64,000 bases of DNA from a virus. Its lineage: Duplodnaviria > Caudoviricetes. Positions 11,755-36,222 of this stretch are shown piece by piece (positions within the stretch are counted from its first letter, which is position 1; the number at the start of each line of letters is the position of its first letter). The stretch spans positions 5,544-69,543 of IMG/VR virus record IMGVR_UViG_3300025387_000016, one strand, 5' to 3'. The translations under genes were made by a program, and so were the position numbers. Below the pieces are notes generated by a model, which searched no databases, was not told the DNA's origin, and saw only the letters and a program-made list of their open reading frames with translations.

Positions 11755-11915
11755 GTTGTTTTCCGATACTTATCCGGCACGGGGCCGCTATAGGTTGTGC
11801 CGTTGTATTCAGAGGTGAACGGGAATCGTGCGCCACACGGGATACACATTACATACGTCTTTGCCCCGGCGTTCATAAGAATCCACTTATGCTTGTTGTC
11901 TACGCATTTCGCCAT
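11751..11915 (-). CDS. Small Zn-finger-like protein
   Basis: Read manually: MAKCVDNKHKWILM...CIPCGARF...; overlaps both neighbours in coupled fashion. Confidence 0.5.
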   Translation of the reverse strand: MAKCVDNKHKWILMNAGAKTYVMCIPCGARFPFTSEYNGTTYSGPVPDKYRKTT

Positions 11916-12139
11916 TTCGCCCTCTCGCTGATTGTTTTGCGAAAGAACGCTACTGCACTATCGGCTTCCTTGCGAGTGTTGAAGTCTTCGGTCTTGATGA
12001 CGAGGTGATAGGTTCCGTCGCCATCGTGGATAGTCTCAATAAAATATCCGTAGCCGAGCCAAAAGTCTACTTTTTTAGCCACTTCGCCCACCATTTCTTG
12101 TCGGTCTGCTTCTTTGCGTCGTAAACGCTTTCTCGCCAC
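11900..12139 (-). CDS. Hypothetical protein
   Basis: 79 aa, AAGGAG RBS upstream. Confidence 0.6.
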   Translation of the reverse strand: MARKRLRRKEADRQEMVGEVAKKVDFWLGYGYFIETIHDGDGTYHLVIKTEDFNTRKEADSAVAFFRKTISERAKWRNA

Positions 12140-12172
12140 GTTGCGAACTTCTCCTTGGCGGTAATGCTTGCT

Positions 12173-12505
12173 CTAATCTGCTTCATTCGCACTCCTTTGG
12201 TGAACGCCTACGATTCCGGCGATAATCCAAGTGACCACAGGAACGGCAACGGCGTTGCCCATTTGCTTATAGCGATTGGTATCGGAGTTGATGCCCGTCC
12301 ACCCACGAGGAAAGCCCTGTAGAGACTCGCACTCTTCTGGCGTTATTCGGCGCACCCTCGTTTCAGCACTACGGACAGGAACGTTTCCACCGCCCGTTCC
12401 CATAAAAGCAAGGAGAGTCGGGGATACGGCTTCGTGGACTCGCATTTCACCAGTACGGCGATTTGCTTCATAGACCGTGTTGTTATCTAGCGTGGACACT
12501 GACAA
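12173..12505 (-). CDS. C5 DNA methyltransferase C-terminal module 3 (TRD + motifs IX/X)
   Basis: RRITPEECESLQGFPRGWT...YKQMGNAVAVPVV. Confidence 0.8.
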   Translation of the reverse strand: MSVSTLDNNTVYEANRRTGEMRVHEAVSPTLLAFMGTGGGNVPVRSAETRVRRITPEECESLQGFPRGWTGINSDTNRYKQMGNAVAVPVVTWIIAGIVGVHQRSANEAD

Positions 12506-12932
12506 TCCCCTCGATTACCCAATCAACAACTGGAACTGCAACTGCGTTCCCCATTTGCTTATAGCGATAGCGGTCTAGTTGGCCGTTGTCTGTCCATCCA
12601 ATCGGAAACCCTTGTAGTTGTTCGCACTCTTCGGGCATTAGGCGACGGATTTGTGGCTTGGTGGCAAACACTTGGGCGTGGTGACTCTGCACACTCGGTT
12701 GGTGTGCTGAAACCGTGCCAGAAACCTCTATGGGCGTGGCACTAAAGGTATTTGCCTTGGCGTCCTCACGGATTGAGTAGGCGAGTGCCTCTTTTTCGGC
12801 GGCTTGGATAGACATAGAAAGAACTTTCAGTACATAGGCATCTTGCGTTGTTCCCGTTGCCGCGTCCCCCATACCAGCGAGCAAAGTCGGCATAATAGGT
12901 TCTTCGGATAGGGAGAGACTTACTCTAGCCAC
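12483..12932 (-). CDS. C5 DNA methyltransferase C-terminal module 2 (TRD + motifs IX/X)
   Basis: RRLMPEECEQLQGFPIGWT...YKQMGNAVAVPVV. Confidence 0.8.
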   Translation of the reverse strand: MARVSLSLSEEPIMPTLLAGMGDAATGTTQDAYVLKVLSMSIQAAEKEALAYSIREDAKANTFSATPIEVSGTVSAHQPSVQSHHAQVFATKPQIRRLMPEECEQLQGFPIGWTDNGQLDRYRYKQMGNAVAVPVVDWVIEGIVSVHAR

Positions 12933-13743
12933 GATTGTTTATAGACACAATTCCGGCGATTACCCACTCCACGACTGGTATAGCAACGGCGTTGCCCATT
13001 TGCTTATAGCGGTGGACATTGGATTGTTCCTTGCCATCAGCACGAAGAAGTGTGTGGTCGTCTGGGAAGCCTTGAAGCCGCTCGCACTCAGTAGGGGTCA
13101 AACGACGAACGACCGATTCCATCCGAACGGCGGCGTAGCCTTGACCGGGCTTTCCGCCACCACCCGTAAGAGCGTTCGTCACGTCAACCTCTCGGATTTC
13201 GGCGCGCTGATTCTCGACCATCGCTTTTGGGGTGAGGATGTTGTGTCGGTTGTTATCCACAGTTCTTGCCACCGCATCCGTTCGGTACACACGATATGGC
13301 TGTGGCATTTCGGGCCACGGCGTTAGCGAACCCACTTCGGAGTTGTTCTCTATTTCAGCACCAGCGCTTTCTTCTATAAGGATGAGATGGCGATTGTTGT
13401 CAACCGTTCTCGTTGGGGTATCCGTGCGATAGACCATATTTGCTTGACCCATTTCGGACCACGGGGTCAAGTTGCCCATTGGGGTTGCCTCTACATCGTA
13501 AAACGTTGCGAGTTGGTTATCGCCCATATGAGCTCGGATGGTTGGGGCTATTTCAGCAGGGTCGTGACCCTCGATTCGACTCAACGCACCCGGCTCAAAG
13601 ACTTGAGGGTTCTGGGGAACCATAACCGAAGCACCGCCCGTAGCCGTAAGGGTGTACGAGGGGTCGCCCGGATTTCCGATGCCCAAACCGTTCTGCTTCT
13701 GCTCTAGGCCGCGCCCGTCTTGGATTGGAATTGGCTCACTCAT
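12925..13743 (-). CDS. C5 DNA methyltransferase C-terminal module 1 (multiple TRD-like units + motifs IX/X)
   Basis: RRLTPTECERLQGFPDDHT...YKQMGNAVAIPVV. Start at ATG 13743 overlaps the upstream stop (ATGAGTGA). Confidence 0.82.
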   Translation of the reverse strand: MSEPIPIQDGRGLEQKQNGLGIGNPGDPSYTLTATGGASVMVPQNPQVFEPGALSRIEGHDPAEIAPTIRAHMGDNQLATFYDVEATPMGNLTPWSEMGQANMVYRTDTPTRTVDNNRHLILIEESAGAEIENNSEVGSLTPWPEMPQPYRVYRTDAVARTVDNNRHNILTPKAMVENQRAEIREVDVTNALTGGGGKPGQGYAAVRMESVVRRLTPTECERLQGFPDDHTLLRADGKEQSNVHRYKQMGNAVAIPVVEWVIAGIVSINNRG

Positions 13744-14887
13744 CTTCGCCCGTTTCAGCAAAGGTCGTGTGGACAGAAACCATTGGTATTCCAAGGCCGA
13801 TGAAGTCACTCCCACTCGCCGTGACGGTCGGGGCAATACCCTCTCCGTACATTGAGTTGACTCGACGTTCTACGACTACGTGCGCCTCGGCTCGGTTGGA
13901 GTCGGTGGCAGTTAGCGTTGCGAATGGGGGCGAATCAGCATACCCATTGAAGTTCCCACCCGAATAAGCCGATTGCTCGACAACAATAAAGTCCTCTTGG
14001 CTCATAGATGCCCGAAGCGTGTTTAGCCCCTCGGCGTATTGGGCGAAGTCACTCTTAGAAAAAGGGATGGTCGAGTTCTCGTCAGCGACGGCCTCTCCCT
14101 CCTCTAACGGCTCAAACGCATACGGCGTGTTATTGCTACCCGTTGAGGCGAGCAAAGTGGTTGATGTTTCAGCAACTCGCAAGTCGCCGCGCTGGTTCTG
14201 CGTGACTACTGCGGGTCGGGCGTGTAGCCCTCGGCTTGCTTCTCCAAGGCTGTCTGTAGTGCTGTCGGCAAGGTCTTCCCACGCCGCTTCGCTCTCGCCA
14301 GAATCCCCGCACACGCTTTCGCGCTCAAATAATACTTCTGTGGCACTTCGCCAGTCTCCAGCACGTCGGCCAACGATGAAGACGCGCCGCCTGCGCTGGG
14401 GAACTCCGAAGTATTGAGCATCCAACACCCGCCAACTGACGCCGTACCCGAGTTCGACCAACGTGGCGACAACGCTTCCCATATCTGCCCCTCCGTTACT
14501 GGAAAGAAGACCGGGGACGTTTTCGAGGACGAACCACTCTGGCTCGACTTCTTTGATGATGCGCGCAACTTCGTAGAAGAGGCCGCTTCTCTTTCCAGCC
14601 AGCCCAGCACGTCTTCCGGCAACGGAAAGGTCTTGGCAGGGGAATCCTCCGACAAGGATTCCGTTTCGTGGAACAAAGCCTGCTGAAATAAGTTGCTCAC
14701 CTGTTACCTCCGTAACATCGTTGAATAGTTGAGTGTTTGGGAACTGCTTTGCCAAAATCGCTTGCGCGTGTTTGTCAATCTCTACGGCGGCTACGACTTT
14801 CACCCCATTGCGTTCGAGAGCAAGGTCGAAACCCCCCACGCCCGCAAAGAGGGAAACCGCAGTCATCTGTTGGGTTTCATTAGCCAT
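13736..14887 (-). CDS. C5 cytosine DNA methyltransferase catalytic subunit (motifs I-VIII, lacks IX/X)
   Basis: SLFAGVGG (I), EID (II), GGFPCQDLS (IV), ENVPG (VI), QRRRRVFIVG (VIII). Start at ATG 14887. Confidence 0.9.
   Translation of the reverse strand: MANETQQMTAVSLFAGVGGFDLALERNGVKVVAAVEIDKHAQAILAKQFPNTQLFNDVTEVTGEQLISAGFVPRNGILVGGFPCQDLSVAGRRAGLAGKRSGLFYEVARIIKEVEPEWFVLENVPGLLSSNGGADMGSVVATLVELGYGVSWRVLDAQYFGVPQRRRRVFIVGRRAGDWRSATEVLFERESVCGDSGESEAAWEDLADSTTDSLGEASRGLHARPAVVTQNQRGDLRVAETSTTLLASTGSNNTPYAFEPLEEGEAVADENSTIPFSKSDFAQYAEGLNTLRASMSQEDFIVVEQSAYSGGNFNGYADSPPFATLTATDSNRAEAHVVVERRVNSMYGEGIAPTVTASGSDFIGLGIPMVSVHTTFAETGEDE
14206..14700 (-). CDS. Nested alternative-frame ORF resembling the M.EcoHK31I beta polypeptide
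   Basis: Lies wholly inside the MTase gene in another frame; carries SSLADVLETGEVPQKYYLSAKACAGILARAKRRGKTLPTALQTAL, the conserved overlapping-frame motif of EcoHK31I-type MTases. Confidence 0.7.
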   Translation of the reverse strand: MSNLFQQALFHETESLSEDSPAKTFPLPEDVLGWLEREAASSTKLRASSKKSSQSGSSSKTSPVFFPVTEGQIWEALSPRWSNSGTASVGGCWMLNTSEFPSAGGASSSLADVLETGEVPQKYYLSAKACAGILARAKRRGKTLPTALQTALEKQAEGYTPDPQ

Positions 14888-14932
14888 AGTTGAAACTATA
14901 ACTGATTCAGCAACGTTTGTCAGGTCAATCGC

Positions 14933-14968
14933 AAACAAAAAACCCCACCCGGGATTGGGTGGGATTCT
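14933..14968 (-). terminator. Intrinsic terminator downstream of the Rpf-like gene
   Basis: Minus strand ATCCCACCC-AATCCC-GGGTGGGGT followed by TTTTTGTTT. Confidence 0.75.
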
Positions 14969-15032
14969 TGTAGGTCACAAGGAACGAGTAGTGCCTATGA
15001 ACACTATAGTCACGTTTAGCGACCACATCAAG

Positions 15033-15656
15033 TCATACGCACCCGTCGCCGTTCCACGGCGAGAACCCGTCTCGTTTCCAATACCAAATCGCAACGGCAC
15101 TCTGCTGTTCGGGCGTTGCGTAGTTGGCACTAGACACGGGGATACCGAGAGCCTTCGCACCGAACTGCCAGATATAGGGCAAGAACTGATATAGGCCTTC
15201 TGCGCCCGAATACTGATTTGTGTCGTTGGGGTGATTTCGGCTTTCGGCGTATCGGATACAGGCAAACGTCACTTGGTCGGCCATAGGGAGTGACCTAACC
15301 GGGTCGCTTGCCGATGGCTCGTATGCCGTTGGGTCGGTCTGCCACGTCCACCAAAGAGAGTTGCCGATGTCATATGAATCAGCACTAAGGGTGTGGGAGT
15401 GGGCCACAAGATGTGGGGCGATAGGTTGCGGCGCGACAACGTGAGCCGTGACAACGTGGGGCTTTACAACGGCCTTTGGCGCAGGCGTGGGGAACCACGC
15501 CCCCTTGTTGGGGATTAGACCAGTATTGCTTCGATAGGCAATAGTGGTGATATGTGTAGGGGTCGCACTCTTGACGGCGTGAGCGTGTGGGTGGCTTGTT
15601 GCCGTGCTTACGCCTAGAGCGAGAACTAAAGCGACGCCTCTAATAGCGCCTCTCAC
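15033..15656 (-). CDS. Secreted lytic transglycosylase (Rpf/SLT-like lysozyme domain)
   Basis: N-terminal signal peptide; CIRYAES (catalytic Glu), GLYQF..W, ATPEQQ.AVA, GFSPW..C. Confidence 0.8.
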   Translation of the reverse strand: MRGAIRGVALVLALGVSTATSHPHAHAVKSATPTHITTIAYRSNTGLIPNKGAWFPTPAPKAVVKPHVVTAHVVAPQPIAPHLVAHSHTLSADSYDIGNSLWWTWQTDPTAYEPSASDPVRSLPMADQVTFACIRYAESRNHPNDTNQYSGAEGLYQFLPYIWQFGAKALGIPVSSANYATPEQQSAVAIWYWKRDGFSPWNGDGCV

Positions 15657-15818: not shown

Positions 15819-18800
15819 TTATTCCGTGTCTGGGTCGGTGAGCTCCACGCCGGGCATATCAGCATCATCGCCCACGAGCGTCACAGGGCCGTCAAGCGTG
15901 TAGAGGAACTGAACGATACCGACTTCGCCATCTGGCGACCAATAGGTATTACTTCCACGACGAGGTGAGATTGCTTCGGTGTCCATATCTGCCGCCTTGC
16001 TTACGCTTTCCGTTGAGTTGTTCCAACCATAGGCATCAGCAAATGCTTTTTCTGCTGGCGTGTCTCTCAAACCCATTTCCTTTTGAGCATAGGCTTCGGC
16101 GTATGCCTCTTGCATCTTCCAGCACCCATATTGCGTCATACCTAGTTGGCTAAGTGCATCTTTCTCTTTACTTGAAAGTTCTCCGATTCCTGAATCAGTA
16201 TCGGCAAGGAACTTTGGAAGGTCGGCGCGTGAAACGATAAGGTTGCCACCGAAGTCAACTCTTGCGTATTTTGCGTTGGCACGAACGAACTTACCTTGGG
16301 CATCTTTCTGCCCTTTTACCCAATCAACTTTTGGTGATACTTTCAAGAGTTCGTTGAGAACGGGCGTGATTTTTAGGCCGTTCTTAAAGAAATTGCCGTG
16401 ACCGATTTCGTGGATAAGTGTCGCCTCAAGATTTCGTTGAGTGGACATAAACATATCGCCAATGCTGAAAGAGCGACCAATCTTGCCTTGATTTATCTTA
16501 ATGTTGGCATCGTCGGCTTTTTCCAAAGTGCTCTCAATTTTGTTGACCGCATCTCGACCCTCTGGCGTGTCTGACTTACCTTTGATTTGCATTTCAGCAG
16601 TGGCGAGTAGTGCGTTCCAATCCGTTTGGGCCTGTGCGGGGTCGGCCGCACCACGAGTCGGATTGTATTTGGCAATAGATTCCATAAGGTTTCGGCTAAT
16701 GAGACTGTGCTTGCCCATAGCAATAGTATCGGGGTCGCCCATACAAACAGCAGCGAGGGTTCGGGTGCTTAGTTTGCGATTGGTGTCAAAGTCAATCTTC
16801 TTGCCAGTAGACCACTTATCCACGATTGCGAGAACGTTGTTTGTCGCTCGGTCGCCAATCTTCCAACCTCGCGCGGTGTTCCTAAATACGGCAGTGTTTC
16901 CGGCTTTGGAAACATAGACAGTATGGTTATTGCCCTTTTTCAGCATTGACCAACCATCGGGCAATACGCCCTTTCCATACTTCACATCAAGGCGAATACT
17001 TGGAGAGTCTTCTATGGGCGCAGAGTCGTTGGTTTGCTTCGTTCCGCTAGTGCGTGCCTCACTCTGCTCGCCACCCACGCCGTTTTCCCATTGGTTCCCG
17101 TGGAAAACGTGGCCGGGCTTATCCCCTGATTCGCCAGCGACTCCGGTTTTTTTTATTTGTGTATCACCTAACGAGAGTCGTGGGTTGCCGATATGGTCGT
17201 GCCACTCGTTCGCAACGTGGAGCGCGGTCTTGGCATCACACGAGAGTCGTTGGATTGGAAGTTTGTAGTCGGGGTTGGCGGCCTTTATTGCCAATGCTGC
17301 TGACCAATAGTGATGTCCGTCAATGATATAGCCGTCGCTTGACACAAGGGGTGCGCGCTTTTCGGGGATTCCCGTTTCAGCAAACTCCTTAAATACGCCG
17401 CCAGTCTTCCACCCGTCAATCTCGCTCTGTGAGGGCTTGATGGTTCGGGGGTCTACGGCTTCTTGTTTGGCAGTGATTCCATACTTCGCCTCAATATCCT
17501 TTAGGAATTGGGGGCGTTGGCTCGGTAGGATTTGCGGCATATGCTCACGCAGCAAATCAGCATTATTATCAGTCTTAAACGGCTTTTGCCCGTCAACGAC
17601 GAGATTCGTGATGTTGTAGCCCTTGTCTCGCGTCCCTAAGTCGTAGATACCCGTGACGAGTGAGGGCAAATCAGCACTCTTGACTTCGGGGCTCGCACCG
17701 TTGTCGAGTTGTTCGACTACGCCCGATGCGTCATATTGGTTCCCGTGAAATATATGACCGAGAACGTCGCCCTTTAGGACTTCGAGGTGTCGGTTCCACG
17801 CTCGGCGTGAAGTTTGGCCGCCAACTGGCGAGCCAACGTGCGAATCTCGTCCTTGTCCATCTTGTCTATGCCCTTTGGCAACTTGATTACCTGAATCGGG
17901 TTGTGCTTCTCCGACATTTCCTGTGCCTCCTGTGGGTACTTCGTCTTGTGCGGCCACATCCCAAATGGAAATCTGGTCACGGTCTTGGCCGGCCTTGATG
18001 GCCGCTTCCTTATCCTCAATGTTTTCGGATACGTCTAGGTATACTTTACCATCATTTAGCCATAGACCCAAGTAGTTATTCTCTTTGCCGAGCTCGGCTT
18101 GGTGTTTCAGCAGGTAGTCATTGAGGATATCTTCGGTCTTTGCGGGGTCGAAGAAATCCTTTTCGTCAACTACCGCCCCAAACTTCGAGTCGGTGGCAAC
18201 CATAAAGCCCTTGACTGGTTCGCTTCCGTCAATCAACTTGACGCTCAAACCGCCGTTTTCTCGCACCTTTTCAGCAACTTCTTGGGCTACGCCCTCACCA
18301 GTTGTGTATTGGTTGCCGTGAAAATTGTGTCCGGGGAGGTCGCCTTTGTTTACGGGGTCAATGCCACCAGACCACGCACCGTCATCCACCCACGTTCCAT
18401 CGTTCATTTCAGCAGGGCTGTGTTGTTCGCCCATCTGGTCAGTAAACCGGGCTTGCTGGGCTAGTTCCTTTTCGGCCTGTCCACGACCTAGTGCGGCGAG
18501 TGAGTTTCCGTCATCGTCGTTGCCGTAGTGCTTTGAGGCATCAAAGAACGCACGGGCAGCGGCATCGTGCGCTCGTGCTGCTGACTCAAATTGTTCTTTA
18601 CGGCGAAAAGCGTGGGCTTGGTTAGAAAGTTTTTCTGCTTCGGCTACTTTTCCGTGACCTTTGCTTTTATTGTCTTCCTCAAACGACTTGGCTACGGCTT
18701 CACTTGCCTTTTCAGCACGAGCAACCATCTTTTTTGCCCACGCATACCCAGCGTCGCCACCCCACGCATACCACGCCACCTTTCCGGGGCTTGGTTCATT

Positions 18801-19718
18801 CCAATGTGGTGATTGTTTATCAACGCCGTGTCGGTCGAAAAACGCTTTCATACGCTTGAGGGTGTCAAGGGATACAGGGTGGCCATTGGCGAGGTCAGAG
18901 GCGCGTTTACGGCCTACTGACGTGAAGTTGCGACCAGCCTTGCCGTCCGCCATCCACTCAAGGGCTTTCTTGGCCGCTGATTGAACGGCGAGTGGTGGGG
19001 TTTGTGACTCAAAGGCGGCCTTCGCAACGACAACTGCCTCAATCTTTTGGAACGCCGAAATAAGGGCATTGAGGTTCCCCATAAGATTTCCAAACTTGTC
19101 TGCCATACCGAGTGAACCGAATACGCTAGAAAGGGGCATCAACTTTGATTTCAGCACGAGCAGACTTTCGGTAGTCACGCCGCCGTTCCAAAGTTCCGTG
19201 ACCAACTCTGGCTTTGGGAGTCGTGGCCGGAAGTTGCAGAGCGCGTGGTCAATGCCGACAATGCGACCATCTTTAGTCCACATCAAGTTCTTGGGTCGGC
19301 GGTCGGAGTTTGCTGTTAGGTAGTCAAACAAACGAAGGGCGATACCCTGTTCGTTATTGGGGATATCTTCCTTGCCAGCAAGAACGCCGTTGTTTCCCTC
19401 AATAAAAGGCATAATGATACTTTGGGCATCCGAGTTGGTGAAGTAGCAGTCACGGATAGGAGCGTTCATTACTTCGCCCACACGAGCCGCTAGATACTCC
19501 TGTGCGCCGAGCAACTCGCCTCGGTATGTCCTACCACTCTTATTGCCTGTCCAATCCTGTAAACGCTTCTCAACGCCCTTAGAGCCATCAGCAAATGTGA
19601 CGTAGAAGAACCCGTCATTCTGGTTTCCGTGAAAGAGTTTTCCGCCAATAGGTTCTCGGCTAATAATATCCGTGTTCGTAAACGTGACGAAGTTGGGTTG
19701 AAAAACGTTATTGGACAT
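15819..19718 (-). CDS. 1299-aa multidomain tagged head-cargo polyprotein (kinase-like, AWGG domain, ParB-like, zincin)
   Basis: FDYLTANSDRRPKN...IDHA (PI3K/HipA-like); AWYAWGGDAGYAWA; three GHxFHGNQ tags; DGHHYW ParB-like; HEIGH...EAYAEAY zincin. Confidence 0.8.
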   Translation of the reverse strand: MSNNVFQPNFVTFTNTDIISREPIGGKLFHGNQNDGFFYVTFADGSKGVEKRLQDWTGNKSGRTYRGELLGAQEYLAARVGEVMNAPIRDCYFTNSDAQSIIMPFIEGNNGVLAGKEDIPNNEQGIALRLFDYLTANSDRRPKNLMWTKDGRIVGIDHALCNFRPRLPKPELVTELWNGGVTTESLLVLKSKLMPLSSVFGSLGMADKFGNLMGNLNALISAFQKIEAVVVAKAAFESQTPPLAVQSAAKKALEWMADGKAGRNFTSVGRKRASDLANGHPVSLDTLKRMKAFFDRHGVDKQSPHWNEPSPGKVAWYAWGGDAGYAWAKKMVARAEKASEAVAKSFEEDNKSKGHGKVAEAEKLSNQAHAFRRKEQFESAARAHDAAARAFFDASKHYGNDDDGNSLAALGRGQAEKELAQQARFTDQMGEQHSPAEMNDGTWVDDGAWSGGIDPVNKGDLPGHNFHGNQYTTGEGVAQEVAEKVRENGGLSVKLIDGSEPVKGFMVATDSKFGAVVDEKDFFDPAKTEDILNDYLLKHQAELGKENNYLGLWLNDGKVYLDVSENIEDKEAAIKAGQDRDQISIWDVAAQDEVPTGGTGNVGEAQPDSGNQVAKGHRQDGQGRDSHVGSPVGGQTSRRAWNRHLEVLKGDVLGHIFHGNQYDASGVVEQLDNGASPEVKSADLPSLVTGIYDLGTRDKGYNITNLVVDGQKPFKTDNNADLLREHMPQILPSQRPQFLKDIEAKYGITAKQEAVDPRTIKPSQSEIDGWKTGGVFKEFAETGIPEKRAPLVSSDGYIIDGHHYWSAALAIKAANPDYKLPIQRLSCDAKTALHVANEWHDHIGNPRLSLGDTQIKKTGVAGESGDKPGHVFHGNQWENGVGGEQSEARTSGTKQTNDSAPIEDSPSIRLDVKYGKGVLPDGWSMLKKGNNHTVYVSKAGNTAVFRNTARGWKIGDRATNNVLAIVDKWSTGKKIDFDTNRKLSTRTLAAVCMGDPDTIAMGKHSLISRNLMESIAKYNPTRGAADPAQAQTDWNALLATAEMQIKGKSDTPEGRDAVNKIESTLEKADDANIKINQGKIGRSFSIGDMFMSTQRNLEATLIHEIGHGNFFKNGLKITPVLNELLKVSPKVDWVKGQKDAQGKFVRANAKYARVDFGGNLIVSRADLPKFLADTDSGIGELSSKEKDALSQLGMTQYGCWKMQEAYAEAYAQKEMGLRDTPAEKAFADAYGWNNSTESVSKAADMDTEAISPRRGSNTYWSPDGEVGIVQFLYTLDGPVTLVGDDADMPGVELTDPDTE

Positions 19719-20127: not shown

Positions 20128-21039
20128 TCACGACTTTTGCGAGTTGGTGTCGGGGGTTGGTGGAGAGGGGGTGTCAAATCCTTGTAGCGATACGTTGTGC
20201 TTCTTATCCCACGCCAAGCCGACATCCATAGCCGTTTTCCAATCGCACGACAATTGATACACCGGCATCGTCGCACTTTTGCCCGCAAACTTCAGCGCAA
20301 CGGCAGCGGCCCAAGTGTGGTGGCCGTCAACAACGTATCCGTCTTTGGAAACGAGGATACGCATACTGTCGGGAATACCATCTGGGTTCTTCCCCATAAT
20401 TCCGCCCGACTTGTCGCCGTTGATTTCCTTTTGGATTGGCTTGAGGGTCGTGGGGTCTACACGCATTGGTTTTACGGTGATTCCGTTTGACTTCTCAATA
20501 TCTTTGAGGAACTGGGGGCGTTCCTTCTCGTCAATTTGTGGCATTTGGCTGCGAGAATAGCCCTTACCATCCAATCCCATAAGGCGAGTTCCGTCAATGC
20601 GAAGATTTGTGATGTCGTTGCCCTTGGTTTTAGTGCGAGCCATTTCAGCAAGAAGGTCGGGCAGGTGCTTGTCCGAGACAACTGGTTGCTCGCCTCGCAT
20701 TAGGGCAAAGTGGATTTCATTCGCCCACGCACGGATTCCCTTTGGCGAGGTATCGGTTGGGTCGCTCTTGATACGAGTGTCGTGGTTTGGAAGAGGCTTC
20801 GGCTCTAACTTATCAGCAACGACAGGCTTGATATCTTGGGTGGTTTGGGGCGAGCCGTATCGGTCGGATGCCACTTGGTTGCGATTCGGGTCGGTTTGAC
20901 GGGCCGGTTGAGCACTAGCCGACGAGTCGGAACCTACCCCTTGTGAGTATTGGTTCCCGTGAAAGGAGTGACCCTCAACATCTCCGACCTTAGCGAGCCT
21001 GACCCACTCAATGATTTGCAAGTCAATTTCAGCAGTCAT
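20128..21039 (-). CDS. Tagged cargo protein with ParB/Srx-like domain
   Basis: IIEWVRLAK-VGDVEGHSFHGNQY; VDPTTLKPIQ...ILVSKDGYVVDGHHTWAA. Start at ATG 21039 (or 21054). Confidence 0.78.
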   Translation of the reverse strand: MTAEIDLQIIEWVRLAKVGDVEGHSFHGNQYSQGVGSDSSASAQPARQTDPNRNQVASDRYGSPQTTQDIKPVVADKLEPKPLPNHDTRIKSDPTDTSPKGIRAWANEIHFALMRGEQPVVSDKHLPDLLAEMARTKTKGNDITNLRIDGTRLMGLDGKGYSRSQMPQIDEKERPQFLKDIEKSNGITVKPMRVDPTTLKPIQKEINGDKSGGIMGKNPDGIPDSMRILVSKDGYVVDGHHTWAAAVALKFAGKSATMPVYQLSCDWKTAMDVGLAWDKKHNVSLQGFDTPSPPTPDTNSQKS

Positions 21040-21077
21040 TGTTGGGCCTTCCAAACTAGGTTCCCAGCAACTTTACC

Positions 21078-21305
21078 CTATCGGATTAGGTTTCCCTGTG
21101 CGTCGTAAGCCCAATCTGGTATTCCGTCTAAGCGGTCTAGGTTCGGCTCGCCTCTAACAATCTTGTCTAGAAGACCGAGACTATCCACCCAACCGTTAGG
21201 GCCGAGAATCTGCGCCTTGTCGCTATCAGCAAAGTCGTAGCGATACCCACCTAGTAGTTGACCATTAGGGGTCCGAACTTCGTAGTAGGTCCAGTTATTT
21301 GCCAT
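21078..21305 (-). CDS. Putative immunity/antitoxin protein for the upstream RelA/SpoT domain
   Basis: 75 aa, no tag, starts 2 nt after the toxin-like gene stop. Function is inferred from position. Confidence 0.5.
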   Translation of the reverse strand: MANNWTYYEVRTPNGQLLGGYRYDFADSDKAQILGPNGWVDSLGLLDKIVRGEPNLDRLDGIPDWAYDAQGNLIR

Positions 21306-21307
21306 AA

Positions 21308-23590
21308 CTATAGTATAGTCTTCTTGACCGAACGGATGCCAACGCCCTCAATGTCCTTGGGAATACGGACTTGTGAGAAACTAGTCATCATTGTTTTCCG
21401 CCCCTCTTCGTATTCAGGGCTACCCTTGCCGGCCTTACGCACGTTGTTGTAAATCTTGTGCATCGCTTCAGCAGTATCCAAACTCTGTTGAGTGTGGAAC
21501 TGAATCTCAACGACCATACCCGTCTTGGGGTCTACGAAGTTTCCGTTGATGCCTCGGTATCCGTTTTCGGGGTCGTTATTAAAGTAGTTCTTTACATACT
21601 CGTTGCCTAAGCGGTCCTTGAGTGGGCTAAATCCTTGCGCACGAAGACTATTCAGCATTTCTAAAGCACCGTTAGTAATTCTCTTTTCCGGCCACGTCAC
21701 GGTGTAGCGAAGCAAGTCGTGGATATGGCTTGCCGTTGCCGTGAGTTGCTCGTGGGTAAGGTCTTTGGTCTTGTTGTAGTCAATAGAGTCTTTGAGAGTC
21801 TTCTCGGTCGCACTCTTGAGTGACTTTATGGCGAAGCGGGCTCGAGTTCGGGTTCCGCCCGATTCCTTTGCTGATTTGGAAATCTCCGCAGACACTCGCT
21901 TGGCCTCCTTGTTGGATGCCACAACGAATGGTCGAGTTGCTTCCATAGCCGCACGAACAAGTGCGGGTGGCAACTTCATTTCGTCGGAGAGTTTGGAAAC
22001 AATCATTTCTGATTCTGCTTGTGAGCCGAAAGGTGGTGTTTCTTCATCCGCACCAGCAGCGGCCTGATACTGATTGCCGTGGAACTCGTGTCCGAGTTTG
22101 TCGCCCTTTTGCACCGTTTCGTCTTCAGGGTTATCGTCGCCGTCTCCGGGAACACGAATGGCTTGGCTTAGGTCAATCGGTACGTTATTCGCAGCGTCAT
22201 CCGCACCCTCTGGGCCGAAGTTAGAGCCGGAGATTTTGGTGGCGTAGTTGTCGGGCATCACCATCGCACCACGGTTGAGAATCATCAAGTAGTTGTGGCT
22301 TTGGTCACGGAGGCCATCGTAACCAGCGAGTGCGGGGGTAAGGCTCTTACAGCCATTGTTCCCCTGAAAACACTCACTACTAATACGGTTCACCTCTTCA
22401 TCGGTGTAACCGGCTTCTTTCATAATCTCACCCATTTTGTAGTCAGGGTGGTCCATAGCATCGTATTTCCTGTGGTCACGAGCATCCGCCGTAATGATGT
22501 CCAACTTCAGCATAGGGCCTTCGCCCTTTGCCTCATAGATATTGGATGGGTCCGTCATCTTCACTCGGAAGATACAGGAGTTTAGGTCCCTAGAGCCACT
22601 TTGGGTCGCATACGTTGATGGCGTTCCCTTATCCGTTGAAGAGTAGAACGCCGCACCAAACATAGGGCCGCCGTAACGTGGGAATCCACCACTAGCGAGC
22701 GTTGCCAACTTCTGCTGAAGTGTCTGTGTCGACCTATATGAGTTGGTAAGACCAGAGTAAGTGACCTTACCCGGCTCAGCACGGAACTCCGCTTCGCTAA
22801 CAAAACGTGGCTTTCCCGTAAAACCGCACATCTTGAGTAGGGCTGCGTTGGCGCGAACATTGCTGTTTACCTTTACGGCATTTGCCTGTGCGAGAGCCTT
22901 GCGGAAATCATCTGGGTTCGTCAAGATGTTGGTGAGGTTTTTTACGAAGAGGGGTTGGCGTTCCTTTGGAACGTAGATTCTTTTGGCAAGTGCGAGGGCA
23001 GATGCCGCAGCCTTTTCTTCGAGCTCGCCCTCGGGCTTCCACTCTTTCGCATCAGCAATACGTTGGGCAAGCGGCTTTTCTCCTTCGGTGGCGTATGTTT
23101 TTTCCGCAACCTCGGTTCGGGGCTCGCTTTCCTTTTCCTCTGCGACAGTTGGCGCTTCTACCTTTGGTTCTTCTTTAGGTGTAGGCGTAGACGTAGGCGT
23201 AGGAGTGGGTGCTGGCGTGGGCGTTTGAGCCGTAGCCGGGGCGGGTGTAGGCGTTGGCACTACTTTTGGCGTTCGTGGCGCGCGAGGGGCTTTAGGGGCC
23301 GCAGGTGCTGATGGCGTAGTCGCTGGCTTGGCCGTAGCGGCACGGGTCTTGCCGGGTTTGGAAACAACCGGAATAGGCGTAGAGGGGCTAGGATATAGTC
23401 GTTTTAGTTCAGCATCTAGAGCAGGACCCTTTAGGGGCTTGTTCGTTGCTGGGTCACGGGGTCGTGGAACAGGAACGCCCCACGGACCCATAACCGTCCA
23501 TTGGTTGCCACGAAACTCGTGACCATCTTTATCACCAGATTGACCAGCAACGCCAACTTTTAGAACTGTAAGGATACTCCGAAAGTCCAC
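21308..23590 (-). CDS. Tagged cargo protein: ART-like domain + C-terminal RelA/SpoT (small alarmone synthetase-like) domain
   Basis: Two tags. Middle: TYSGLT...GAAFYSS...TYA...GYDGL...YLMILN (ART-PolyVal-like). C-terminus: R..IKS..S...K, HDLLRYT, KNYF...YRGIN...EIQFHT. Confidence 0.8.
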   Translation of the reverse strand: MDFRSILTVLKVGVAGQSGDKDGHEFRGNQWTVMGPWGVPVPRPRDPATNKPLKGPALDAELKRLYPSPSTPIPVVSKPGKTRAATAKPATTPSAPAAPKAPRAPRTPKVVPTPTPAPATAQTPTPAPTPTPTSTPTPKEEPKVEAPTVAEEKESEPRTEVAEKTYATEGEKPLAQRIADAKEWKPEGELEEKAAASALALAKRIYVPKERQPLFVKNLTNILTNPDDFRKALAQANAVKVNSNVRANAALLKMCGFTGKPRFVSEAEFRAEPGKVTYSGLTNSYRSTQTLQQKLATLASGGFPRYGGPMFGAAFYSSTDKGTPSTYATQSGSRDLNSCIFRVKMTDPSNIYEAKGEGPMLKLDIITADARDHRKYDAMDHPDYKMGEIMKEAGYTDEEVNRISSECFQGNNGCKSLTPALAGYDGLRDQSHNYLMILNRGAMVMPDNYATKISGSNFGPEGADDAANNVPIDLSQAIRVPGDGDDNPEDETVQKGDKLGHEFHGNQYQAAAGADEETPPFGSQAESEMIVSKLSDEMKLPPALVRAAMEATRPFVVASNKEAKRVSAEISKSAKESGGTRTRARFAIKSLKSATEKTLKDSIDYNKTKDLTHEQLTATASHIHDLLRYTVTWPEKRITNGALEMLNSLRAQGFSPLKDRLGNEYVKNYFNNDPENGYRGINGNFVDPKTGMVVEIQFHTQQSLDTAEAMHKIYNNVRKAGKGSPEYEEGRKTMMTSFSQVRIPKDIEGVGIRSVKKTIL

Positions 23591-25404: not shown

Positions 25405-25611
25405 CTAGAGGACCTCGGTGTCCATATTCGATGAGTCATCTTCGGGGTAGATGTAGTTATCTGGCACGGCATCATCTAGCCAACCGAAACTCTGACTATT
25501 TTTGCGTTGCTCATCAAGCGTGACGTATTCGGGCTTTTTCAGCACGTTGCCTACTACTTGTTTGTAAAGCCGAGACTTTAGAAGTTCCTCAATCTCAAAC
25601 GGATTACTCAT
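25405..25611 (-). CDS. Small protein coupled to the upstream cargo gene
   Basis: 68 aa starting MSNPFEIEELLK at ATG 25611, overlapping the upstream stop (ATGAGTAA). Confidence 0.55.
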   Translation of the reverse strand: MSNPFEIEELLKSRLYKQVVGNVLKKPEYVTLDEQRKNSQSFGWLDDAVPDNYIYPEDDSSNMDTEVL

Positions 25612-32544: not shown

Positions 32545-34446
32545 TTACTGGTTTACTGCTGGGAACGTCTGATAGTTGTCGGGGGCGGGCATATCTACTT
32601 CAATGCCCGCACCAGTGCCACCCATTGAGTAGCCGCCAATTTTTCCTTGCTTTACGAGGTCCCACGCCCACGGCTTCCAAATCACGCCGAGGAATACAGT
32701 TCCGGCGGGGAACTTGACGTTGGAAACAGCACCCGTTCCGGCTTGGACCATTGGCAACGAGGTTTCGTAAGGCCACGTCATAGCCTCTACCCATTCACCA
32801 GCCACGATATCTACGTTGTGTTGGAGTCGAATGTCACGGTCGCCCGAACGAACGTATCCCCAAAGGGCTTGCTGTAACTCGTTGGGGTCAGTCCACTCGC
32901 CGTGTGCGTCTGACGAGTATGGAACGTACCAAGGTCCGAGCGTGTAACGCAGGTCGGCATCCTTGCGAATAGTTCCCGGGATTGAGTCATCTTCGATAAC
33001 TTCACCAAACTCCGTAAGGGGTTCTGGCATCTGGCTTTCGAGAACGGTCATCGTTTCTGGGAGCTCGGGTTCCACCGAACCACCCCATTGAGTTGAGTCA
33101 ACGTGAACCGAGCCTAATGCGGGCTGTGATTTCAGCATTGGGCCACTAGCGAGCGAGTCACGGCTCGGTGCGGAGTTTGGGTCGGTGAGCGGTGCGCCGT
33201 AAGTTCCATCTGCGTTTACTTGCATACCAAATGGGTCAGAGTAATCCGAAGACGAGTCGTCGGTTATTTGGTCGCCGTAAGCGAGGCTCTGAACTTTGGA
33301 AACCTCCGGGTTAGCCATAAATGAGGCCGTTTCAGCAGAAGAGCGAATCAGGACTGGAACAATATTGAACTTGCACCAGCCATCGCTTACGCACGAAACC
33401 GCTACCCAGTCACAACCAGCCTCGCCAGATGCGATGCAGTTACCGCACGTTTGGCCGCTTGAGAGGTACGGGGAGAAGTCGGTGTAGTTGGCATCAGTCG
33501 TGGGGATGCGGCCGATTTCCGAAACGATTTCGTCAAGGTTTTCAGCAAGTTCGATTTGCCACGGGTCAAGACCATCGCGCCAGTTTTCGCCCAAGATTCC
33601 GCTACTGCTACTTCCCGTGCTACTAGATGATTCCGAGCCCTCGTCTACGAGGTTGCTTAGGAATCCCGAACCCGACGAAGAAGAACTTGACGATGAACTA
33701 GAACTTGATGAACTAGAACTTGATGAACTGCTAGATGATGACGAGGAACTACTTGACGAGTCATCGCTCGACGAAGACGAGGAACTACTGCTTGATGAAG
33801 AACTACTGCTTGATGAAGAACTTTCCATACTCATTTCAGCAGAGTGGCTTGACGACGAACTCTCCGACTCTTCGGATGGGGCTACTAGCGTAGGGTTCTG
33901 AACGGCACTAAGGATTGAGGCAACTGTATTTGGGTCAAGTTGTACCTGCACCGCGCCGTCGTTGGGGATATCGGCGGATGGGGCTACGGGGCTTGTGTTG
34001 AACGTAAAGGGGAATCCAACTGCCTTGTCTAGTGGGGCGCACATATCAACTTGGTTGGTTGAGCCGCAAATCAAACAGGCGTGGGAATCACCAAAAGGGT
34101 TGGCACTCTTGACAAATGGGTGCTCAACTGAAGCCAAACCCTTAGCAACGTTGCGAGAAATAAGGCGTTGTTCTGCCCCGGCAGATAGAACTTCGTCGGG
34201 ATTTCCAAATACCTTGTTGGCGAGTCGTTTCCAAATTGGGGAGTTATCCTTGATTTCATCGTTGGGAACCAAGACAACCTCCATTTCACCATCGCCCTTA
34301 GAAACGGCCATAACATCGGCGGTCAAGTAGCCCTCTTTGATAAGGTCTGCGGCACCTTCACGAACACTTACGTTGAGGTTGTGGTTCTTGATAATGTCGC
34401 CCAAAGCAACATCAGCAACGACATCAAAGATGCTTACTTGTGACAT
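32545..34446 (-). CDS. Prohead maturation protease, XkdF family domain at C-terminus, with long N-terminal extension
   Basis: RYTLGPWYVP...DAHGEW....L..A...Y......IRLQH....AGEWVE...P...GTVF.GV.W....W..VK.GKIGGYSMGG; directly follows portal. Confidence 0.82.
   Translation of the reverse strand: MSQVSIFDVVADVALGDIIKNHNLNVSVREGAADLIKEGYLTADVMAVSKGDGEMEVVLVPNDEIKDNSPIWKRLANKVFGNPDEVLSAGAEQRLISRNVAKGLASVEHPFVKSANPFGDSHACLICGSTNQVDMCAPLDKAVGFPFTFNTSPVAPSADIPNDGAVQVQLDPNTVASILSAVQNPTLVAPSEESESSSSSHSAEMSMESSSSSSSSSSSSSSSSSSSDDSSSSSSSSSSSSSSSSSSSSSSSSSSSSSGSGFLSNLVDEGSESSSSTGSSSSGILGENWRDGLDPWQIELAENLDEIVSEIGRIPTTDANYTDFSPYLSSGQTCGNCIASGEAGCDWVAVSCVSDGWCKFNIVPVLIRSSAETASFMANPEVSKVQSLAYGDQITDDSSSDYSDPFGMQVNADGTYGAPLTDPNSAPSRDSLASGPMLKSQPALGSVHVDSTQWGGSVEPELPETMTVLESQMPEPLTEFGEVIEDDSIPGTIRKDADLRYTLGPWYVPYSSDAHGEWTDPNELQQALWGYVRSGDRDIRLQHNVDIVAGEWVEAMTWPYETSLPMVQAGTGAVSNVKFPAGTVFLGVIWKPWAWDLVKQGKIGGYSMGGTGAGIEVDMPAPDNYQTFPAVNQ
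33672..33870 (-). repeat. Poly-serine coding tract (about 60 codons) inside the protease gene
   Basis: Imperfect tandem units such as gatgaactagaactt and gaactactgcttgat encoding SSSS...DD...SSSS. Confidence 0.9.
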
Positions 34447-34608: not shown

Positions 34609-36222
34609 TCACGAAGTCGTGCCTTGATTGTTCGTAAGCGGACCGTTTTGCCCGGTCGTGTTCTTTGTGTTGCCCTTTGCCGATGGTGGCACTTGACCTG
34701 TTTCGCCGGGATAGCCGTGACTGCTGATATCCGCTTGTAATCCCGAACCGCCCGATTGGTCGTTGACACCGCCCTGCGGGTTTTGGACTGGACCGGCGGT
34801 GGCATCGCTTCCACCAGATACGGGGCTCTTGACTCCGATAAATGGGTGCTTGCCTTCCATAATCTGCTGTTGGGCAAACTGTCCACCATCGCCATAGCGT
34901 AGGTTCTGTGCCATACCATTTGGCTGTGACATAAAATCAGGCAGACCGGCGAGTTCACGCAGGAAGTCTTCAAGGTTGTTGTCGGGCGTAATCAACTTGT
35001 TTTGGGTAAGCGTTCCCAAGAATCCGCCGAGTTCTTGTAGGTCAACTGCTGTTACCTGACCATATGAAAGGGTCGGGCAACGCTCGGTGTCATAGCCGTT
35101 GAGGTTCATCAAGCGTGGAATAGCGTGGGAGTTGAAGACCTCGGCAATCAGCCGGACCCACGACTCTACGGCGGCCATAAACAACTCGATTTTGGAAGTA
35201 CCAAGCGAAAACGAGCCAACGCTCTCGTGACCCAACATAATAAAGTCGGCCAAGACAGTCATTGAGATTTGCTGGTTGTAGCGAGAGATAATTTGGTCGG
35301 TGTTGAACTGTCGTGCGCCACCGCTATTCAGCAACTTAAAGTCAATAAGTTGCTTGCCATTTTCGTCAAAGAGGGTCGGCAGAATAATGCCTTCGGTTTC
35401 ATTTCGCTTGACATTACGCACGATTGTCTGCATCGCGCCCAACGCCATCTTTTCAGCAGGGGTGGCGGTAGAGCTCAACCACTCGGCAGGAACGTAAGCA
35501 ACGGGAAGACCGGCAAGGTCACGCTCAACGCCCACCGCCTCAAACTCTTCGATACGACGCTTGTAATACCACGACTTAAACGCATTACGGAGAATTGAGC
35601 GACCTTCGGGGTTTCCACGAGCCGCCGTAGTACGAAACAGCAAACCCTTTTCGACGGGGATTACGTTGAGGCGACCAGTCGTGGGGTCACGCTGGATAAA
35701 CGCCTTGATGCCACCCGATTCGTCAAACTGCCACTGCCAAAGTGAGTCTTGGGCGCGCATAACAATCTTGCGCCACCCAATCTTGTTGTCGGAAAACTTG
35801 GAACGCTTCGAGGGGTCTTTCTGGTTTGGACCCTTGCGCTGTTTGTAGACAATCTCAAAGAAAGCAAAGCCGTAGGGGAGGAACGAGAGGATAGCAATCA
35901 TCAACTCGTGCCACGAGTGGCTCATATCGTCCATACACTCCTGAACGAAGTTTGCCGCTTCCCTATCAGCATCGGTAGGCGTAGTGCCTTCTGCGTCATC
36001 GTAGGGGTCTACACGCCAGTCCACTTGGAGAATGATGCGCTCGATAGCGAACAGCATCGCACCGATAACCGGGTCGTTTTCGGACATATCCCGATACGCA
36101 ATAAGGGCTTGTCGGCCTCGTAGTTGCGGGAGGATATCGTCAATGACGAATCCACCCGTGCGCCAAAGACCTGACGCACCGAGTTCAGCAAAGTTATTTA
36201 CCCTATTCTGGTCGTCGGGCAT
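34609..36222 (-). CDS. Portal protein
   Basis: 537 aa; D.VIGAML.AIE..I..V.W.V; NPEGRSILRNAFKSWYYK..IEE.EAVGVERDLAGLPV; heads the head-morphogenesis cluster. Confidence 0.88.
   Translation of the reverse strand: MPDDQNRVNNFAELGASGLWRTGGFVIDDILPQLRGRQALIAYRDMSENDPVIGAMLFAIERIILQVDWRVDPYDDAEGTTPTDADREAANFVQECMDDMSHSWHELMIAILSFLPYGFAFFEIVYKQRKGPNQKDPSKRSKFSDNKIGWRKIVMRAQDSLWQWQFDESGGIKAFIQRDPTTGRLNVIPVEKGLLFRTTAARGNPEGRSILRNAFKSWYYKRRIEEFEAVGVERDLAGLPVAYVPAEWLSSTATPAEKMALGAMQTIVRNVKRNETEGIILPTLFDENGKQLIDFKLLNSGGARQFNTDQIISRYNQQISMTVLADFIMLGHESVGSFSLGTSKIELFMAAVESWVRLIAEVFNSHAIPRLMNLNGYDTERCPTLSYGQVTAVDLQELGGFLGTLTQNKLITPDNNLEDFLRELAGLPDFMSQPNGMAQNLRYGDGGQFAQQQIMEGKHPFIGVKSPVSGGSDATAGPVQNPQGGVNDQSGGSGLQADISSHGYPGETGQVPPSAKGNTKNTTGQNGPLTNNQGTTS

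Follow-up and report, generated by a model that had tools for sequence, protein, structure and literature searches.

We describe a two-gene locus in a 64,000-nucleotide stretch of phage DNA (hereafter "the window"; positions 5,544 to 69,543 of the IMG/VR virus record IMGVR_UViG_3300025387_000016, Caudoviricetes). On the minus strand of the window, a gene encoding a 760-amino-acid (aa) protein (21308..23590) is followed by a 75-aa open reading frame (ORF; 21078..21305) whose product is a candidate immunity or inhibitor protein. The C-terminal domain of the 760-aa protein is a RelA/SpoT-type alarmone synthetase. It is joined to a middle domain resembling ADP-ribosyltransferases (ARTs), and a short peptide tag that recurs in neighboring genes, GHxF[HR]GNQ[WY], precedes each of the two. 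On balance we favor, with modest confidence, the interpretation that the synthetase is cargo of the phage head, that the tags are its cargo marks, and that the 75-aa gene encodes a dedicated inhibitor of the enzyme.

In the mechanism that we propose, the tags would mark the 760-aa protein as cargo and, probably, as a head-protease substrate, and the synthetase would be loaded in the capsid and enter the next host along with the DNA. There it would move pyrophosphate from ATP to the 3'-OH of ATP or ADP, and possibly of GTP or GDP, to give (p)ppApp and/or (p)ppGpp. The 75-aa protein would most likely inhibit the synthetase in the producing cell until packaging, and would not itself be packaged.

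The synthetase domain and its small partner gene

The two genes named in an initial annotation of the window correspond to real ORFs at the same coordinates. All of the motifs quoted there were located in the translation: VQKGD at aa 493, GAAFYSS at 312, GYDGL at 423, YLMILN at 434, IKSLKS at 588, HDLLRYT at 624, YRGIN at 678 and EIQFHT at 695. From its N-terminus, the 760-aa protein is composed of a first tag (tag 1, aa 19-31; 23498..23536, minus strand, as are all coordinates in this gene), a low-complexity linker rich in Pro, Thr and Ala (aa 35-165; 23096..23488), the middle domain (aa 166-492), a second tag (tag 2, aa 493-508; 22067..22114) and the synthetase (aa 520-760; 21311..22033). 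The protein therefore consists of two separately folded modules, with one copy of the shared tag ahead of each. Four full-length homologue clusters, 52-92% identical over the queried synthetase region, have the same layout, as do the more distant proteins P0010, P0013 and P0014, in which the middle domains are 39-50% identical. The linker varies in length among homologues, or is missing.

Several kinds of search identify the C-terminal domain as a RelA/SpoT-homologue (RSH) small alarmone synthetase (SAS). The best sequence match is the exported synthetase SaEAS (PDB 8VX3; phmmer, expect value (E) 8.2e-9). An AlphaFold2 (AF2) model of the domain, with a mean predicted local distance difference test (pLDDT) score of 90.1, has the SAS fold, which is that of a Pol-beta-like nucleotidyltransferase. 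A Foldseek search with this model returned 8VX3 first (E 7.9e-10, template modelling (TM) scores 0.66/0.78), followed by Tas1 (6OX6), RelP, CapRel and Rel enzymes; there were 31 PDB matches at E <= 1e-3, and the matches listed are RSH/SAS enzymes. The domain also matches the NCBIfam model for the Rel-like C-terminus of XopAD/skwp effectors (E 8.2e-18) and phrog_7625 ("head morphogenesis"; E 3.5e-12), the latter through its C-terminal part only. Among cultured phages, tblastn recovered the C-termini of MuF-fused proteins (28-32% identity, E 5e-9 to 1e-6) from Streptococcus Javan phages, Mannheimia phage vB_MhS_1152AP2 and Aaphi23. A shared-word search for stand-alone homologues of the domain (132-420 aa) found none. 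The synthetase is placed in a toxin/effector clade together with SaEAS, Tas1/Apk1, Apk2 and the C-terminus of XopAD.

The residues expected of a working synthetase are largely conserved. Across eight sequences that are 25-37% identical to that of the window, the invariant positions are K589, K597, D625, R628-Y629-T630, Y678, G680, N682, E695, Q697, H699, T700, H711, Y714 and R718. The Syn2 Asp (D625, codon at 21716-21718), the Glu of the Syn4 ExQxxT motif (E695, codon at 21506-21508), and the residues of the GYxxxH/N and HxxYK/R motifs are invariant in alignments A3 and A5, and D625 is aligned opposite the Ala of the inactive D121A construct that was used for the SaEAS crystal structure. The enzyme thus appears to be catalytically intact. 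The initial annotation's reading of the C-terminus as a RelA/SpoT-type synthetase is borne out, since phmmer, Foldseek, NCBIfam and the alignments assign the last ~240 aa to this type, with intact catalytic motifs and a nucleotidyltransferase fold.

The product cannot be read from the sequence. Apk2 from prophages of Streptococcus pneumoniae and Mannheimia haemolytica uses ATP to make (p)ppApp, its only product, and poisons E. coli; exchanges of Syn motifs left its specificity unchanged (PMC12226406). The same uncertainty applies to the substrate, and the enzyme might instead pyrophosphorylate the 3'-CCA end of tRNA and shut off translation, as CapRel, FaRel2 and PhRel do. CapRel (7ZTB) is indeed among the Foldseek matches (E 4.5e-5), but its TM-scores are lower (0.44/0.34), and the closest relatives, SaEAS, Tas1 and Apk2, all act on nucleotides. 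We consider a tRNA target distinctly improbable.

The 75-aa ORF is a real conserved gene and is linked to the synthetase. The initial annotation described it as untagged and as starting 2 nt downstream of the 760-aa gene, and both points hold: the junction reads ...CTA TAG TT ATG..., and no copy of the tag lies in the ORF. No terminator-like site was found between the two genes on that strand, and the small ORF is probably translationally coupled to the synthetase gene. The ratio of non-synonymous to synonymous substitution rates relative to its closest relative, in locus L017, is about 0.17, a value calculated from just 8 nucleotide differences. A profile of six members was used to search all of the fetched loci; it found a homologue directly after the synthetase gene in L002/L003 and in L020 (synthetase 47% identical), and one ORF further downstream in L005 (synthetase 35-38% identical). 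In L022 it lies directly after a 293-codon open frame containing the synthetase, which has a different leader tag (...EERASNGRW...) and no ART-like domain. The L022 arrangement implies that the small ORF follows the synthetase, and not the tag or the middle domain. At the level of whole records, the synthetase and the small ORF are both present in the window's record and in the related, tag-bearing records G001 and G003, and both absent from the tag-bearing records G002, G004 and G005. At L023-L025, where the synthetase loci are more distant, the profile detected no homologue. In the records of the Mannheimia and Streptococcus phages, the ORF at the iapK position after apk2 (68-72 aa) matches the 75-aa ORF in size and position; it is followed by a hydrolase-sized gene, which in Javan119 is annotated as a (p)ppGpp pyrophosphohydrolase.

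A number of findings weigh against the interpretation that we favor. The score of the synthetase with the Pfam RelA_SpoT model (PF04607) is 19.1 bits (E 0.0017), below the gathering cut-off of 27, although the NCBIfam XopAD model and phrog_7625 are better at detecting this divergent effector clade. The Arg of the Syn1 RxK motif is Ala (A587) in the window lineage; upstream of it R581 and R583 are invariant, and R585 is also there. Only four homologue clusters of the 75-aa ORF were found in a collection of 5.8 billion proteins, and the sample from which co-occurrence is judged is therefore small, as well as being partly confounded by phylogeny. By hhalign, alignment of the 75-aa ORF with the ORF at the iapK position in Mannheimia phage 1152AP2 and in Streptococcus phage Javan119, and with the small ORF behind a MuF-RSH gene in L024, gave probabilities of <= 2%, and for this reason we do not file it as IapK, an immunity protein of Apk2. 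Nor is the lack of a tag unique to the 75-aa partner, since a second untagged small ORF (25405-25611) occurs among the tagged genes described below. An Aph1-type HD_4 hydrolase was not found in the window's record or in G003, and two incomplete records yielded no integrase. Should the phage be lytic, injection of an ATP-draining enzyme into its own host would call for explanation.

Some of these points would also be expected if the synthetase were head cargo and the 75-aa protein were something other than its inhibitor, such as a folding or packaging chaperone, a prohead adaptor, or merely a syntenic small structural protein. The dissimilarity to IapK and the occurrence of another untagged small ORF after a different tagged gene are in keeping with that alternative, and most of the co-occurrences come from syntenic relatives. 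The sole family lead for the 75-aa ORF is a weak likeness to RHS/YD repeats (GYRYD, AYDAQGNLI; Pfam E 0.051; Atlas 0.89), and we treat it as a lead only. A chaperone or structural role does not fit as well with the retention of the small ORF beside the L022 synthetase, where the tag differs and the ART-like domain is gone, or with the failure to find it in three tagged phage records without the synthetase. Moreover, small size, sequence diversity and a gene directly behind that of the toxin are typical of immunity proteins in polymorphic toxin systems (PMC11699363). We regard a non-inhibitor role as unlikely. For the dedicated inhibitor that we prefer, co-occurrence, size and position fit an immunity-type partner. 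In support of the initial annotation's proposal, the gene is conserved and travels with the synthetase, but no similarity to the IapK immunity protein was detected.

Two further features of L005 were observed at this locus. A 92-aa ORF (L005:6876-7154) separates the synthetase gene from the small partner and resembles a segment that follows the ART-like domain in protein P0012. The next gene (L005:7432-8874) appears, by eye, to encode a canonical MuF-type minor head protein, a type that the window's record lacks.

The repeated tag and the genes that carry it

The pattern GHxF[HR]GNQ occurs 12 times in the window, always on the minus strand and always between 17.0 and 32.3 kb, whereas shuffled sequences predict 0.01 copies. 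Two of the copies are in the 760-aa protein (aa 23-30 and aa 500-507), and the 75-aa ORF has none. Tag 1 has the sequence SGDKDGHEFRGNQW, with GVAGQ before it and MGPWGVPVPRPR after it; its pattern, at 23501-23524, is invariant in alignment A1. Tag 2 reads VQKGDKLGHEFHGNQY (pattern at 22070-22093) and lies between the two folded domains, in a stretch that is modeled with low confidence (AF2 model residues 321-328, pLDDT < 50) and is probably flexible. The tag usually has K-GD-x-x ahead of GHxF[HR]GNQ[WY]. This Lys is not always present: QS-GD occurs at tag 1, and GS-GS in P0012-P0014.

The position of the tagged genes connects them with the phage head. The 12 tags are distributed over nine consecutive genes (pattern match; 32483 down to 15819, minus strand). 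This block lies 3' of genes for a Mu-type portal (Portal_Mu domain match, 34609-36222, minus strand) and for a 633-aa protein with a C-terminal XkdF-type S78_2 protease domain (domain match, 32545-34446, minus strand), and its direction of transcription is that of the capsid gene. Domain matches downstream of the block identify genes for cytosine methylases and for a PD-(D/E)XK nuclease, as well as that of the major capsid protein. Copies of the tag also punctuate polyvalent, multi-enzyme proteins of other phages.

Judging from this gene context, from the tags in the multi-enzyme proteins of other phages and from the low-confidence stretch in which tag 2 lies, the 760-aa protein may be packaged and may be cut at VQK-GD, with release of the synthetase, as the initial annotation proposed. 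The specific claim of a cut at VQK-GD is weaker than the packaging reading, because the Lys is missing before tag 1 and in P0012-P0014. The conserved core of the tag (at least 8 residues) also exceeds what a protease site needs, and the tag may therefore also, or instead, be a docking peptide.

Alternatively, the protein might be a late intracellular enzyme that is never packaged, in which case the tag would be a shared linker, an oligomerization motif, or a protease site with no part in capsid loading. No relevant description of the motif turned up in a search of the literature, and the word "GNQ" does not occur in the paper on polyvalent proteins (PMC5512222). The query of cultured phage genomes with a 25-aa tag peptide (tblastn) also gave no match, a result that is uninformative at such a query length. 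An unpackaged enzyme is difficult to reconcile with the confinement of all 12 tags to nine consecutive genes between the portal/protease and methylase/capsid genes, with the presence of the tag in the polyvalent proteins of other phages, and with the location of the same synthetase clade, in still other phages, behind MuF, which is thought to be a capsid-targeting domain. We consider it improbable, and continue to interpret the tags as cargo marks.

Variants of the tag were also observed. One subtype, GVAGxSGDKxGHxFRGNQW followed by a P/T-rich linker, occurs in the window at 23405-23536 (minus strand) and as the third tag of the gene at L002:12923-17170; it is without the Lys that precedes other tags. 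The tag part of this subtype is common to the third tag of a 1299-aa gene of the window (near 17091-17114). After the subtype tag, the 760-aa gene, the 1415-aa protein of L002 and P0010 have xxMGPxGVPV[PR]RP[RK]. A different putative cargo tag, [DE]EER[DA]xxGRW[TA][ST]GG, is found on several genes of other phages (L022:1-3351, L023:1506-4055 at aa 609, and L004:6789-12247). In L022 and L023 it is directly ahead of the synthetase domain, and L004 has both this tag type and GHxFxGNQ tags.

The source phage is uncultured, with a genome of about 125 kb; a metagenome contig of 125 kb holds a relative. The 69.5-kb record that includes the window has an estimated completeness of 56%. At the DNA level the locus matched no cultured phage, PADLOC gave no hit for the 760-aa and 75-aa proteins, and the MuF domain (PF04233) was found neither in the 760-aa protein nor across the whole 69.5-kb record.

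Other members of the tagged block have features of their own. The tagged neighbors at 20128-21054 and 15819-19718 (both minus strand) have a common domain with the motif DGYxxDGHHxWxAA, which resembles ParB (phrog_2859, E 1e-43 and 1e-73). The second of them, the 1299-aa protein, also has a PI3/4-kinase/HipA-like N-terminus (sub-threshold Pfam match) and a HEIGH zincin-type motif. The large polyvalent protein of L002 (12923-17170, 1415 aa) contains one additional cassette between tags, which resembles R-S-E ADP-ribosyltransferases (ADPrib_exo_Tox, E 9e-5) and is missing from the L003 protein (11835-15311, 1158 aa) and from the 1299-aa window protein; from this distribution, cassettes between tags appear to be gained or lost. 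The second untagged small ORF (MSNPFEIEELLKS..., 68 aa, 25405-25611, minus strand) has an 8-nt overlap with the stop of a gene for a tagged 535-aa protein. The ORF is also conserved in L002, and may encode a partner of that putative cargo protein.

The middle domain

The middle domain begins with a helical subdomain (aa 166-261; 22808..23095; helices at residues 10-90 of AF2 model m90537aa3e506), followed by an alpha/beta core resembling the ART superfamily (aa 262-470; 22181..22807). Modeled with an alignment of its homologues, the domain has a pLDDT of 83.5 and a predicted TM-score (pTM) of 0.86. A full HMMER scan of 1.84 billion representative proteins recovered 14 at E <= 0.001, the window's own included. 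They comprise proteins with the tag-domain-tag-synthetase layout (P0010, P0013, P0014), a protein in which the middle domain is joined to a different C-terminal piece (P0012), and proteins of 859 to 2588 aa in which it is one tagged cassette of many (P0011, P0015, P0018, P0021, P0022). In a separate observation, the 1598-aa protein P0017 contains thirteen stretches that match the middle-domain query, the strongest of them to the GYDGL...NRGAM segment; P0017 is untagged and matches no Pfam family.

The fold was assigned from structure comparisons. Foldseek found nothing in the PDB below E 0.001. The program VIA-align, applied both to Foldseek's list and, without Foldseek, to 48,161 representative chains, returned in each case a top 50 made up almost entirely of the ART superfamily, with Z-scores up to 5.8, root-mean-square deviations (rmsd) of 4-5 A, and 113-154 residues aligned. 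Cholix toxin, exotoxin A, diphtheria toxin, IcmQ, ParT, MbcT, RES, Tpt1, PARPs, pseudo-PARPs and Rhs ART toxins are among the matches. A search of BFVD gave ART-PolyVal-like phage proteins at E 3.3e-3, and an Atlas feature search gave an ART-PolyVal cluster with a score of 0.90. We accept the ART-like fold because the lists of matches are homogeneous, and not on account of any single score. A match to a pre-ejectosome protein of cyanophage A4 (9K3A_B; Foldseek E 0.029, VIA-align rmsd 7 A) was too poor to use.

Membership of the ART-PolyVal family is a different matter. The domain matches no Pfam family at E up to 10, whereas the ART-PolyVal domain (PF18760) of L004, run as a control, scores E 3.6e-18; comparisons of the middle domain with that L004 domain by BLASTP and hhalign were not significant. 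The initial annotation had proposed an ART-PolyVal-like layout with Ser at the position of the first catalytic residue. This is supported at the level of the fold, of the Ser, and of the motifs, which are conserved in homologues, and fails at the level of the family model. The His/Arg position is occupied by S279 in the window and by S, T, R or Q in homologues, an equivalence that is based on motif order and model strands, not on superposition. The Y-x10-Y motif (Y316, Y327) is kept and R440 is invariant; in homologues down to 23% identity these positions are invariant or nearly so. The homologue alignment has no conserved acidic residue in the beta-5 segment NYLMILNRGAM, and the H-Y-[DE] triad is thus not present.

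It could be argued that the middle domain is nonetheless an active NAD+-using enzyme (such as an ADP-ribosyltransferase or NADase) whose active site is non-canonical; the 760-aa protein would then be a double toxin. The fold and the near-invariance of Y-x10-Y and R440 are compatible with this, some of the matches (RES, MbcT, Tpt1, ParT) are ART-fold enzymes with unusual catalytic residues, and several polyvalent proteins retain the domain as a tagged cassette of its own. Against these facts stand the variable His/Arg position, the lack of a conserved Glu/Asp at beta-5, and the absence of a significant match to ART-PolyVal by profile, BLASTP or hhalign. The missing acidic residue makes NAD+ transferase activity doubtful, and without both it and the catalytic His the domain is probably a pseudo-ART. 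We consider a second active toxin quite unlikely; the middle domain is most likely a pseudo-enzyme of this kind, or a nucleotide-binding module, rather than a transferase.

Relation to known systems

The locus appears to work most like Apk2, with an effector-clade synthetase encoded in the head module and a small partner downstream. Both C-terminal RSH synthetases are of the same clade and have invariant motifs in common, and both genes adjoin the portal within the head module and are followed by an ORF of about 70 aa. The differences are equally clear. Apk2 has MuF at its N-terminus, in place of which the window protein has two GHxFxGNQ tags and the ART-like domain. Immunity to Apk2 is provided by IapK and Aph1, whereas the small ORF of the window is unrelated in sequence and its record yielded no Aph1-type hydrolase. 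MuF toxins have been described as specific to temperate phages, and in the two incomplete records available here no integrase was found. Lacking MuF, an IapK homologue and Aph1, the locus is not a member of Apk2.

SaEAS (8VX3) and Tas1/Apk1 (6OX6) are the best sequence and fold matches of the synthetase, at only about 20% identity. They are delivered by a Sec signal peptide or by PAAR and the type VI secretion system, in contrast to the presumed capsid loading here, and SaEAS is without an immunity gene. The general theme is also known from the polyvalent proteins of phages and conjugative elements, which list RelA/SpoT and ART among their modules (Iyer et al. 2017, PMC5512222). Like the 760-aa protein, polyvalent proteins are multi-enzyme, are encoded with head genes and are predicted to be injected; the window protein differs in having only two modules, a conserved peptide tag between them, and a dedicated small partner gene after them. 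With ART-PolyVal (PF18760, Tox-ART-HYD2 clade) the middle domain shares what appears to be an ART-like fold, and the GxxFY...(10)...Y and GYDG motifs; it departs from that family in failing the family model, in having S279 for the catalytic His, and in having no catalytic Asp/Glu.

Phage T4 has a capsid-targeting sequence on IPI-III and Alt. The resemblance is that, in a phage that has a head protease, proteins with little else in common carry the same short peptide, and their genes lie near those of the head. The window motif is a different one, is far more conserved and also occurs internally, between domains; targeting and cleavage are putative in the window phage. New relative to all of these systems are the means of addressing, the joining of the synthetase to a degenerate ART-fold module, the partner family, and the apparent mobility of the synthetase and partner cassette between addressing systems.

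Synthetases of this clade are found with three devices: GHxFxGNQ tags (the window, L002, L005 and L020), EER[DA]xxGRW-type tags (L022 and L023), and MuF (L024 and the Mannheimia and Streptococcus phages). More tentatively, we suggest that the synthetase and the small ORF could form a portable payload-and-immunity cassette that has been fitted to at least three capsid-addressing devices. Short peptide tags would then be general, sequence-readable addresses for injected effectors, and the cassette would be used here by a possibly lytic phage for takeover or counter-defence of its own host, not as a competition toxin encoded by a lysogen. We rate this broader proposal as possible, though rather doubtful as yet.

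Toxic alarmone synthetases of phages have so far been known as MuF fusions in temperate phages (Apk2). The locus described here has the same enzyme clade without MuF. The synthetase stands behind a repeated tag, is joined to a degenerate module of ART fold and is accompanied by a new family of small proteins but no hydrolase, in a phage whose incomplete record gives no sign of lysogeny. If the 75-aa protein is indeed an inhibitor, it would represent a new family of inhibitors of (p)ppApp/(p)ppGpp synthetases. And if the tag is a capsid-loading address, injected effectors would be recognizable from sequence alone in uncultured phages.

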